Virus record (IMG/VR): IMGVR_UViG_2870479586_000005
DNA: 42,950 nucleotides
Source of the DNA: a virus
Lineage: Duplodnaviria > Heunggongvirae > Uroviricota > Caudoviricetes
Direction: 5' to 3' (one strand)
Within the stretch, counting starts at the first letter, position 1. Every line of letters starts with the position of its first letter. Shown piece by piece: positions 26,334 through 27,766 of this stretch. The position numbers and the translations under genes are program-made. The notes under the pieces are model-generated. The model saw only the letters and a program-made list of their open reading frames with translations. It was not told the origin of the DNA and did not search any database.

Positions 26334-26370
26334 GTCCGCTCTGTGCCAAGAGCGAACATTACAAACACAC
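26334..26370 (-). repeat. Conserved hairpin motif, copy A (downstream of the 291-aa gene)
   Basis: Minus strand: GTGTGTTTGTAATGTTCGCTCT-TGGCAC-AGAGCGGAC. 9-bp stem (one G-U pair), 6-nt loop. Confidence 0.6.
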
Positions 26371-26509
26371 TAAAATTTATGTTTGTACTTCGCTGTAGCC
26401 ACCTAAAAGTATTATTGCGGGTGGTTTCGTGACAATGTTAGATATTCTTCATTTTGAATTGATTACTGAATTAAGATAAAACCACCCGAATTAAAACTAT
26501 CAAAAGTAT

Positions 26510-27385
26510 CTATGGTTGTTCATCACTCTCTTCTGAAAGTATTTGTACTACTTGTCCACACTCTCCACATACTACGTGTAATTGACTATCTTCTTCGGAC
26601 TTGAAAATCTCACTAACTAAGCTATGACAGTTAGGGCATTTTATCTCGTTATCAAAACCTATGAATTTAAGGAATAAGTTTTGAATTAATGAAACTGCAG
26701 TGCAAGTGAGTATAAGGCAAATTTTAGCGTCAGGAATGTTTTTGTTTGAAGAGTGCACCGTCTCTGCGGAAAAATCCCATGCAGACTCAATCGTTGAGCG
26801 GCAATATTTTCTGAGACTTGAGTTTCGTTTTCCTGCGGCATACAACCCAATAATAATTCGGCAAATATTTTTAAAGTCAGCTGCTTTAATATTTTCTTTT
26901 TTTAATATATCCTCATGAGTTTTATAAAGGTGAGCAGCAAGCTCAACCATGCTCTCTCTACAAGTTAGTCCAATACTTTGAATATCTTCAGGGGCCTTAA
27001 TATTATTCAGAGCAACAGCAGAAGCATTTAACCTCCGGCTAATAGAACGAAGCATATCTATATCTAAAGGTAACTCATCAATAACATGTTTGAAATCATT
27101 GCTATGTCTTGCTTGTAGTCTTTGAGTTATACCCAAATGAAAAGAATATGCTTCATCAGCAGAAAAGAAAAACTCATTTTGAGTGTATAAGTTTAAAGGA
27201 ACGTTTTCACCTTCAGCAACCCACCAGTTACCATCATTTTTTGTTCTGACGTTCCAAATGTTAACCTCAAAACCTAAATCATTAAATGTTTGCTCAACTT
27301 GCATGTTTTTTATGTTTTCTATATTTTGAGTTTTTAAATATTCAGTAATTCTTTTCTCAGCATCGATTCTGTATTCTGGTGTCAT
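26510..27385 (-). CDS. Hypothetical 291-aa protein with a C-terminal zinc ribbon
   Basis: AT-rich gene. Preferred ATG at 27385, with AAGGGA upstream (the track uses a TTG at 27391). C-terminal CPNC-x18-CGEC. An internal RLQARH matches the loose Rx4-6H pattern. A TTAACG-17-TATAAT promoter-like element sits in the 58-nt gap upstream. Confidence 0.6.
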   Translation of the reverse strand: MTPEYRIDAEKRITEYLKTQNIENIKNMQVEQTFNDLGFEVNIWNVRTKNDGNWWVAEGENVPLNLYTQNEFFFSADEAYSFHLGITQRLQARHSNDFKHVIDELPLDIDMLRSISRRLNASAVALNNIKAPEDIQSIGLTCRESMVELAAHLYKTHEDILKKENIKAADFKNICRIIIGLYAAGKRNSSLRKYCRSTIESAWDFSAETVHSSNKNIPDAKICLILTCTAVSLIQNLFLKFIGFDNEIKCPNCHSLVSEIFKSEEDSQLHVVCGECGQVVQILSEESDEQP

Positions 27386-27449
27386 GTGCAATCCCTTTTA
27401 ATAAGATACTAAAAGTAAAAGCGCATTATAGCATAACACATACAATGCG

Positions 27450-27695
27450 TTAATGCGTATGCTTGTGCCCTGTAATGATTTCAAAATGAACGTTTGCATA
27501 CAACTGTTTTTTGATCTGGTTGTATTGCAACAGAATGATTTCCACTGCTCGTTCATAGCTGATCTTCAGTTTAGTTAGCATGTCCGTTCTGTGCCTTTTA
27601 AGTTCATTCTTGCCATACTTAGCCGACTTGAATGCTATTTCTTCTATCACTTTTTTAGTTGGCATATTGGGGCTAGAGTTCCGTTCCTCGCTCAC
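27450..27695 (-). CDS. Hypothetical 81-aa helical protein
   Basis: GTG start with AAGG upstream (alternative ATG at 27665). Lies between hairpin motif B and the 291-aa gene. Confidence 0.4.
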   Translation of the reverse strand: MSEERNSSPNMPTKKVIEEIAFKSAKYGKNELKRHRTDMLTKLKISYERAVEIILLQYNQIKKQLYANVHFEIITGHKHTH

Positions 27696-27729
27696 GGCAG
27701 ACCTTAAGCTCAGTTAGTTCGTCTGCTCC

Positions 27730-27766
27730 GTGCCAGAGCGAACGTTGTAAACACAACATTGCTTTA
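27730..27766 (-). repeat. Conserved hairpin motif, copy B (downstream of the DUF2971 gene)
   Basis: Minus strand: GTTGTGTTTACAACGTTCGCTCT-GGCAC-GGAGCAGAC. About 80 percent identical to copy A by eye, with the same stem-loop geometry. Confidence 0.6.

Follow-up and report, generated by a model that had tools for sequence, protein, structure and literature searches.

In the stretch of viral DNA analysed here (hereafter the window; 42,950 nucleotides (nt), IMG/VR record IMGVR_UViG_2870479586_000005, Caudoviricetes), a lambdoid prophage carries, between its replication and Q/lysis genes, an array of two gene cassettes and one cassette remnant, delimited by four related sites. All four sites lie on the minus strand, and neither the profile nor the covariance model finds another elsewhere in the window. 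Cassette 1 encodes a 359-amino-acid (aa) protein matching Pfam DUF2971 (E=9e-11) and the PADLOC candidate defence family PDC-S31 (E=1e-50), and is missing from sister prophages at the same locus. Cassette 2 encodes a 291-aa protein with a C-terminal zinc ribbon, weakly matching Zn_Ribbon_TF, and with no PADLOC match. The remnant between them resembles an arrangement of tandem cores, 79 nt apart, in another locus (L120); the mechanically listed 81-aa open reading frame (ORF) at 27450-27695 is built from the two sites on either side of the remnant and is probably not a gene. A hairpin motif recurs at the end of each cassette. On the comparative evidence presented below, we consider it likely that this motif is one half (H1) of a double-stranded DNA recombination element that separates the cassettes of such arrays, and that the window holds an ‘orphan’ array devoid of the recombinase gene.

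The two copies of the motif read GTGTTTGTAATGTTCGCTCTTGGCACAGAGCGGAC (copy 1, minus strand, 26368 to 26334) and GTGTTTACAACGTTCGCTCTGGCACGGAGCAGAC (copy 2, minus strand, 27754 to 27721). A 20-mer pattern common to both matches twice in the window against 0.04 matches expected, and none of 100 shuffles gave two or more. An earlier note, made from the letters of this DNA, had reported the pair; its interval for copy 1 (26334-26370) fits, and that for copy 2 (27730-27766) lies about 10 nt too high. As it described, the copies sit 3′ of minus-strand genes, 97-110 nt past the DUF2971 stop (27863) and ~140 nt past the stop of the 291-aa gene (26510), and both form 9-bp stems with a (T)GGCAC loop. 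In copy 1 the stem is fully paired, one of its pairs being G-U; in copy 2 it contains a C-A mismatch besides two G-U pairs. A U-tract follows neither copy, a T-run being absent and the terminator scan being empty at both. Where the earlier note counted two copies in the window, the covariance model identifies four related sites (Table 1), and the motif constitutes only the left third of a larger element.

The full element is ~85 bp long and bipartite. Its first part, H1, consists of a 9-nt arm, the spacer TGGCAC and a 9-nt inverted arm (consensus GTCCGCTYC-TGGCAC-RRAGCGGAC). An 18-nt linker (..CTAACTGAGCTGAAG) leads to the second part, H2, in which two arms enclose the spacer GAGCGA (consensus GTCCGCTRW-GAGCGA-RRAGCGGAC). 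Each spacer keeps its sequence in 90% or more of the elements. H1 and H2 are palindromic 9-6-9 sites of 24 bp each, and such palindromes, with two inverted arms flanking a 6-8 bp spacer, are the architecture of tyrosine-recombinase core sites.

The arms are shared between element and cassette. Each cassette opens with an arm RRAGCGGAC(RTT) and closes with the inverted arm (AAY)GTCCGCTYY, such that, with a slash marking the boundary here and below, the left junction is arm-GAGCGA/cassette (site type H2) and the right junction is cassette/TGGCAC-arm (site type H1). Between two cassettes there is either the 18-nt linker, or a ~700-bp recombinase module, or occasionally a single H2 site. Since the cassette ends are thus inverted repeats (RRAGCGGACRTT ... 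AAYGTCCGCTYY), the ‘leader’ that had been reported ahead of the hairpin (..AAYGT) is the outer portion of a recombination-site arm, mirroring ..ACRTT at the other side of the cassette.

The array-end module, site C, contains copy 1 and a tail that is kept in phages P2 and 899 and in other arrays. We also observed an inverted copy of the spacer region 3′ of every array-end H1 (CTCTGTGCCA in P2; CTCCACGCCA in the window, 26285-26333; CCCTGTGCCA in L002, about 2750-2790; also L145, 790-822), by which the end module resembles a reversed core. When the array-start module is compared with the reverse complement of the array-end module, the two are imperfect inverted repeats of ~55 nt. Thus, H1 looks like a reversed H2 (GTGCCA vs GAGCGA).

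Table 1. Sites and cassettes of the array in the window, listed from array start to array end.
Feature	Position	Strand	Details
Site A, array start, degenerate full element	29058..29143	-	covariance model 40.8 bits, E=1.3e-7
Site A, parts			TGGCAC 29123-29118; inner arm CGAGTAGGC; linker; arm GGCAGCAGT 29089-29081; spacer GAGCGA 29080-29075
5′ arm of first cassette	29074-29066	-	AAAGCTGCA, directly after site A spacer
Cassette 1, ~1.34 kb	27735..29074	-	359-aa DUF2971 gene 27863-28942; 5′ arm AAAGCTGCA to 3′ arm GTTCGCTCT (27743-27735)
Site B, full inter-cassette element	27671..27754	-	covariance model 72.5 bits, E=9e-15; nhmmer 60 bits
Site B, H1			arm GTTCGCTCT 27743-27735; spacer (T)GGCAC 27734-27730; arm GGAGCAGAC 27729-27721 (copy 2 of the motif)
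Site B, linker	27720-27703	-	GAACTAACTGAGCTTAAG
Site B, H2			arm GTCTGCCGT 27702-27694; spacer GAGCGA 27693-27688; arm GGAACGGAA 27687-27679
Remnant segment, 80-90 bp	27597..27678	-	between sites B and B′; ‘empty’ or decayed cassette without credible gene
Site B′, degenerate full element	27532..27616	-	covariance model 36.4 bits, E=1.3e-6; nhmmer E=3e-6
Site B′, parts			AGGCAC 27596-27591; AGAACGGAC; linker ATGCTAACTAAACTGAAG; ATCAGCTAT; GAACGA 27554-27549; GCAGTGGAA 27548-27540
Cassette 2, ~1.2 kb	26349..27548	-	promoter-like site 27453-27425; 291-aa gene 26510-27385; 3′ arm GTTCGCTCT 26357-26349
Site C, array-end module	26285..26368	-	covariance model 29.2 bits, E=5e-5, H1 part only (26368-26320)
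Site C, parts			cassette arm GTTCGCTCT; spacer TGGCAC 26348-26343; arm AGAGCGGAC 26342-26334; conserved tail TGTCATATTAGGTTTGGCTCCACGCCATAGATGTG; contains copy 1 (26334-26368)

What these sites do is suggested by prophages that share the backbone of the window and differ in their cassettes. The E. coli (Escherichia coli) ST131 prophage L001 is 97-98% identical to the window on both flanks of the array and carries unrelated cassettes; the homology stops inside copy 1, at ...GT/TCGCTCT TGGCAC, and on the other side at 29075, directly after GAGCGA. In E. coli Ecol_AZ159 (L142), the same prophage has an array at the same backbone position (201-aa gene ... LprI), in the order site A, 269-aa cassette, single H2 junction, ETEC_3214 cassette, recombinase module, 366-aa cassette, site C. 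With both prophages, the homology of the window ends exactly after the GAGCGA of site A and resumes at the TGGCAC of site C. Three different arrays (window, L001 and L142) with unrelated cassettes thus occupy one locus in otherwise near-identical prophages, all three having flanks of 97-98% identity, and the breaks fall at the same two hexamers.

The same boundaries appear when a single cassette is followed through different arrays. A 314-aa cassette, spanning GGAACGGAC... to ...GTCCGCTCT, is found with varied neighbours in at least four different arrays (in E. coli prophages, IMG/VR contigs, Citrobacter youngae locus L087 and L120), its upstream context varying through GAGCGA and its downstream context from TGGCAC on. 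In recombinant pairs, every informative breakpoint maps either to alignment columns 19-26 (H1 arm/spacer) or to 64-72 (H2 spacer). These positions were taken by inspection, a global distance-correlation test of segment linkage being too noisy. Isolated point differences aside, no breakpoint was found inside the core among aligned elements sharing one flank only, and the core variants, told apart by the linker, the two purines that follow TGGCAC and the two bases that precede GAGCGA, stay together as intact haplotypes. Finally, matches of shared cassettes were in the same orientation in 149 instances and inverted in none, on which ground inversion of cassettes between H2 and H1 was rejected.

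Such exchanges might also be explained by passive homology ‘linkers’, as in modular phage evolution, whereby general or phage-encoded homologous recombination acts between the ~70-bp elements and the recombinase gene is incidental. Lambdoid and P2-like phages readily recombine, the length of the conserved core suffices for Red/RecT-type recombination, and most arrays have no recombinase gene in the sequence seen. Homologous recombination has also been invoked for exchange at the P2 hotspots by the authors who described them (PMC9122126). We nevertheless hold this explanation to be unlikely. The breakpoints cluster in the two 6-nt spacers even though the arms on either side are equally conserved, the cores are unbroken haplotypes, the sites are 9-6-9 palindromes, and the recombinase module described below is framed by exactly the same two hexamers. 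Besides, homologous recombination leaves the sequence conservation itself unexplained.

To place the element among known genomes, a degenerate pattern derived from it was used as a search, which returned 27 IMG/VR contigs and 94 genome loci. True elements were present in 26 of the 27 viral contigs and at 59 of the 94 genome loci, all 59 in Enterobacterales; the remaining genome-locus matches are chance ones in unrelated phyla. From these loci and contigs, 100 unique full elements were recovered. The search of related genomes, which the earlier note had proposed, thus turned up further copies in Enterobacterales loci, viral contigs and E. coli plasmids. Isolated phages with the element are the P2-like GMG73, 899 and vB_YpM_46 and the lambdoid mEp460. 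The arrays are always polar and co-oriented, with an H2-type start, zero to several full elements and an H1-type end, and comprise 1 to 4 or more cassettes of 0.08-6 kb each.

In E. coli, the element occurs in 414 of 5426 genomes, at a median of one place, and its contexts are mobile or accessory: prophages, islands adjoining NACHT or DUF6602 genes, and plasmids. This copy number and context rule out a repeat of the REP (repetitive extragenic palindromic) or ERIC (enterobacterial repetitive intergenic consensus) type, the former being the generic host element that the earlier note had kept in mind.

An RNA reading would make the motif a terminator or, as was first suggested for it, a processing or stability signal closing each cassette transcript. 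It is true that both window copies lie 3′ of co-oriented genes and that copy 1 is a clean 9-bp hairpin. Gene orientation is random, however: in 73 distinct cassettes from related loci, 67 ORFs lie on the strand of the element and 61 on the opposite strand, and in L005 both neighbouring genes are antisense. The window copies do not stand out by their fold z-scores (-0.5 and -1.6). Compensatory changes supporting the stem are essentially lacking, since the two-hairpin model pairs 81.2% of cells vs 80.0% in column-preserving shuffles, and variation of both partners is confined to the top two pairs of H1. There is no Rfam match at the motif, either at gathering or at E<=10, no terminator call or U-tract at either copy, and the DNA breakpoints lie inside the ‘loop’. 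Taken together, the random orientation, the lack of covariation, U-tract and Rfam match, and the position of the breakpoints argue for a double-stranded protein-binding site. The RNA 3′-end reading is thus largely refuted, and we give it next to no credence.

Three other assignments were tried and rejected. A sigma-54 promoter (TGGCAC-N5-TTGC) lacks the -12 element by inspection. A hammerhead-like CUGAUGA is peculiar to the L015/L021 variant, hence not a general feature, and Rfam has no match for it. A link to the ‘xerC’ adjoining mcr-10 looks unrelated, the published attL having TCAAACGTA.

The most widely shared ORF family near the arrays is a 200-aa protein, residues 35-184 of which match Pfam Phage_integrase (PF00589, E=1.6e-17). 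Representatives are WP_001305361.1, from E. coli Ecol_AZ159, and WP_001752951.1, from plasmids. It reaches no NCBIfam family cut-off, the IntI-specific one included. Its HxxR, LLGH and Y motifs align with XerD; the Arg of KLRGCDL was assigned by inspection as the first catalytic one. The protein is too short to hold an N-terminal core-binding domain and consists of the catalytic domain only. In every locus examined, L142 included, the recombinase gene lies between TGGCAC and GAGCGA, on the strand opposite to the array and at the position of the linker. The layout reads cassette arm/TGGCAC-AGGGCTGCTGTTGCAGCCCT (hairpin) ... gene ... AAATCTCC..GGGAGATTT-GAGTATGGTT-GTCCCTTAT-GAGCGA/cassette arm. 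The ~700-bp block between the hexamers is conserved, with unrelated flanks, in 641 plasmids (Klebsiella accounting for 558 of these matches) and also occurs in 889 of 5426 E. coli genomes. Relatives of the recombinase with 76-97% identity are found in Enterobacterales, Proteus/Providencia, Idiomarina and Pseudoalteromonas, and those with 42-60% identity on alpha- and betaproteobacterial plasmids; a Phaeobacter homologue is flanked by GTCCGTAA-TGGGCC and GTCCGGAAC-GAGCCC. The wider neighbourhood of the recombinase gene, taken irrespective of H1 and H2 sites, includes metabolic genes on plasmids, and arsenic and copper genes on marine metagenome contigs resembling islands or integrative and conjugative elements (ICEs). 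The gene is absent from the window. The earlier suggestion of a binding site for an encoded protein appears right in kind, with the correction that the protein is not encoded by a cassette and is most likely this 200-aa tyrosine recombinase of the sister arrays.

Several features of the recombinase loci were noted in passing. A perfect inverted repeat, AAATCTCC-N8-GGGAGATTT, stands a few bases 5′ of the recombinase start codon in all enterobacterial copies (L007, L100, L137-L139, L142) and could serve as an autoregulatory operator. The module of plasmid L139 is found ~10 kb away from qnrS1, within a block (ISKpn19, resolvase, betT, DUF2254, ..., IS26) in common with plasmid L137, the two (L137 and L139) being E. 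coli and Klebsiella pneumoniae plasmids. In Proteus mirabilis (L134-L136), the recombinase gene and several element-like sites sit in an island of ~8 kb between icd and a duplicated icd 3′ fragment, adjoining a separate prophage integrase, and the arms by the gene are AGATCTGCC.. / GGATCTGAT.

The 70-bp element resembles an internally deleted form of the 700-bp recombinase module, the two having both ends in common. This raises the question of whether it is a non-autonomous element in the manner of miniature inverted-repeat transposable elements, which inserts between genes, ‘cassettes’ being whatever separates the insertions. We regard this as very improbable. The arms completing H1 and H2 travel with the cassettes and not with the core, defined polar array ends are common to unrelated phages, sister prophages have everything between the conserved ends replaced, and no pairs of empty and filled sites were seen.

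Sites of this kind have been met before. Inverted repeats flanking fun(Z) and further inserts at the variable G/FI locus of P2-like phages, implying site-specific recombination, were reported in 2004 (Nilsson, Karlsson, Haggard-Ljungquist 2004 Mol Biol Evol 21:1, as related in PMC8987985 and PMC9122126). In P2, the start of fun(Z) reads ...CTGACA GTTTCCTTT GAGCGA/GAAGCGGAA and the end GTCCGCTTT/TGGCAC AGAGTGGAC TTCAGATTAGG..GCCATAGATATG, and the covariance model of the element family matches both flanks. In P2 there is one cassette, fun(Z), opened by a site of the H2 type and closed by one of the H1 type, and these align with sites A and C of the window including ~50 nt of flank. Phage 899 has two cassettes and a full element at the fun(Z) position, where the neighbouring genes are those for tail-fibre assembly and the sheath. 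Across P2, phage 899, the window and the sister prophages, start modules align with start modules and end modules with end modules, GAGCGA and TGGCAC being invariant. The sites at P2 fun(Z) and those in the window belong to the same sequence family; the window array differs in lying in a lambdoid prophage and in having two cassettes, a remnant and bipartite internal elements. Since fun(Z) is flanked by the same sites, this kind of locus was already known, and the window array, with two cassettes and no recombinase gene, is a member of this cassette system of the fun(Z) type, which is known yet barely characterised. A search of the full-text literature, which did not extend to the 2004 primary paper, found nothing on a recombinase, the two-hexamer architecture or multi-cassette arrays, and no recombinase is mentioned in the papers found to cite it. 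The study of P2/P4 hotspots leaves the recombination pathway for defence-gene exchange to future work (PMC9122126).

It is instructive to compare these arrays with better-known systems. Like integrons, they are polar arrays of exchangeable cassettes with imperfect palindromes and a tyrosine recombinase, many of them without its gene, as in clusters of attC sites lacking integron integrases (CALINs). Defence genes, described in a preprint as frequent integron cargo (bioRxiv 10.1101/2024.07.02.601686), are frequent cargo in both. Unlike the integron enzyme, the recombinase here is a 200-aa protein with the catalytic domain only, encoded inside the array between half-sites and not at one end, and a pair of 24-bp palindromes with two exchange points stands in place of a single folded attC with RYYYAAC/GTTRRRY boxes. 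By inspection, the consensus has no R″(RYYYAAC)...R′(GTTRRRY) boxes; the long hairpin has no covariation, and no IntI family cut-off is reached. Nor are the cassettes of the integron type, which are mostly promoterless and co-oriented, given the 67 vs 61 orientation of ORFs and the promoter-like site inside cassette 2.

A related possibility is that the recombinase acts, as on attC, on folded single strands, the element being one long imperfect hairpin with an outer stem from the cassette arms, an internal loop of TGGCAC/GAGCGA, an inner stem and the linker as terminal loop. The L002 element folds in this way (z=-4.25), and the succession of outer boxes, unpaired spacers, inner boxes and variable loop resembles folded attC. 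We find this improbable. The long-hairpin pairing is 83.3% vs 83.6% in column-preserving shuffles, 409 of 500 of which reach the observed value; the ‘loop’ would measure ~700 nt in arrays that have the recombinase gene in place of the linker; at the terminal sites and at the single-H2 junction, each palindrome stands by itself; and there are two exchange points per element, not one.

The arrays also invite comparison with the pdif modules of Acinetobacter, whose movement is described as still debated (PMC12907356, PMC11705084). Both consist of discrete modules bounded by short arm-spacer(6)-arm sites (11-6-11 in pdif; 9-12 nt arms and a 6-nt spacer here), and adjacent sites are oppositely oriented, given that H1 approximates a reverse-complemented H2 (GTGCCA vs GAGCGA) and the linker is mirrored. 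The differences are threefold. First, the arms here (GTCCGCT) are unlike the XerC/XerD arms of the dif/cer consensus when compared by eye. Second, a dedicated small recombinase is embedded here, as opposed to the host XerCD there. Third, there are usually two sites and a linker between modules, as opposed to one shared site. Integrons and pdif modules are the closest analogues in function; on sequence and architecture, we exclude membership in integrons and, with the arms compared by eye, in pdif modules. A further likeness is to engineered recombinase-mediated cassette exchange with heterospecific lox/FRT sites, in which the same arms, different spacers and a preserved orientation (149 to 0 here) recur; the latter is man-made, and heterospecificity here is deduced from sequence only.

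Returning to the reading that we favour, namely a double-stranded recombination element, we infer the exchange mechanism from what is seen directly, i.e. the site anatomy, array polarity, location of breakpoints, fixed cassette orientation and embedded recombinase gene. The recombinase would bind the arms, and strands would be exchanged inside the invariant 6-nt spacers or at their borders. As H1 and H2 have the same arms and different spacers, like would recombine with like (H1 x H1 and H2 x H2). The partners might be two arrays, whether phage-borne, plasmid-borne or chromosomal, or else one array and a circle excised as cassette plus core, and the outcome would be that cassettes are swapped, added or removed in fixed orientation. 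For the window array, the enzyme would be supplied in trans. The 70-bp elements, in this mechanism, would be miniature versions of the recombinase module. Of the uses that the earlier note had envisaged for its motif, a recombination site mobilising single cassettes is the one favoured by the comparative evidence from breakpoints and sister prophages.

Having proposed this mechanism, we would note the points that weigh against it. First, most arrays, that of the window included, have no recombinase gene in the DNA seen, the gene being present in about 12 of ~90 loci. Second, the Proteus arms beside the recombinase gene differ (GATCTG...). Third, independent breakpoint events are few, about 6-10. 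Fourth, a ‘null cassette’ in five loci (L011/L019/L023/L030/L032, e.g. L011 1810-1953) reads as a 28-codon 5′ remnant of the recombinase gene followed by GTCCCTTAT-GAGCGA-AAT-TTGCAC-GAAGCGGAT. Two cores are here joined through 3 nt, both cassette arms being gone, and this GAGCGA-AAT-TTGCAC arrangement does not follow simply from two-strand exchange across a shared 6-bp overlap. Fifth, in L142 a single 24-bp H2-type junction, GTCCGCTCT-GAGCGA-GGAGCGGAC (10701-10724), replaces the usual H1-linker-H2 and is not explained by the simple model; it may be the product of H1 x H2 recombination within one element.

Outside the array, three further features of the window were observed. First, ~370 nt of non-coding DNA (29144-29514) separate site A from the divergent LprI gene; they are ~98% identical in sister prophages, have no ORF and no Rfam match, and might hold an outward array promoter or accessory recombination sequences. 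Second, an 81-nt direct repeat, 90% identical, occurs at 26004-26084, as the in-frame 3′ end of the 201-aa gene (25480-26085), and at 30507-30587, 3′ of the LprI gene. The repeats bracket the cassette array, a 380-nt non-coding region and the LprI gene, as if the block had integrated into the 3′ end of a gene, and the same 81-nt duplication is found in the ST131 prophage. Third, the only Rfam matches in the window, namely C4 antisense RNA, isrK and the c4-a1b1 target, lie at 31453-31650 (minus strand), just upstream of an ORF6N antirepressor-like gene (30613-31449). This region is a P1/P7-type immI module inside a lambdoid prophage.

The locus bears on the question of how anti-phage defence genes are swapped in phage ‘hotspots’. 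Cassettes elsewhere encode Old (E=7e-209), PD-Lambda-1 (E=1e-170), PDC-S39, RES, DUF6602 and Mrr-like proteins; most of the cassette genes are candidates for anti-phage defence. Repeats of the fun(Z) type extend beyond P2: lambdoid prophages, P2-like phages, plasmids and chromosomal islands have multi-cassette arrays with these repeats as joints and with a cargo that includes Old, PD-Lambda-1, PDC-S31 and PDC-S39, and the same joints incorporate a small recombinase that is highly conserved. The interest of the locus is that the analysis points to a candidate enzyme and a site logic, reducing the hypothesis to one enzyme and two 24-bp sites. The sites also provide a handle for finding single-gene defence candidates, as any DNA flanked by a GAGCGA site and a TGGCAC site can be taken for a candidate cassette. 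Should the model of heterospecific sites prove right, these arrays would be a natural counterpart of the cassette-exchange tools.

More tentatively, we raise the possibility, which we rate a little short of even, that the sites constitute a Proteobacteria-wide, integron-like gene-capture platform, in which cassettes bounded by two heterospecific 24-bp sites are serviced by a 200-aa, catalytic-domain-only tyrosine recombinase whose gene occupies an inter-cassette position, the 70-bp elements being its miniatures. If true, this platform could be the mechanism that turns over the defence ‘hotspots’ of P2-like and lambdoid phages, and might likewise mobilise modules for metabolism and metal resistance on plasmids and ICEs.

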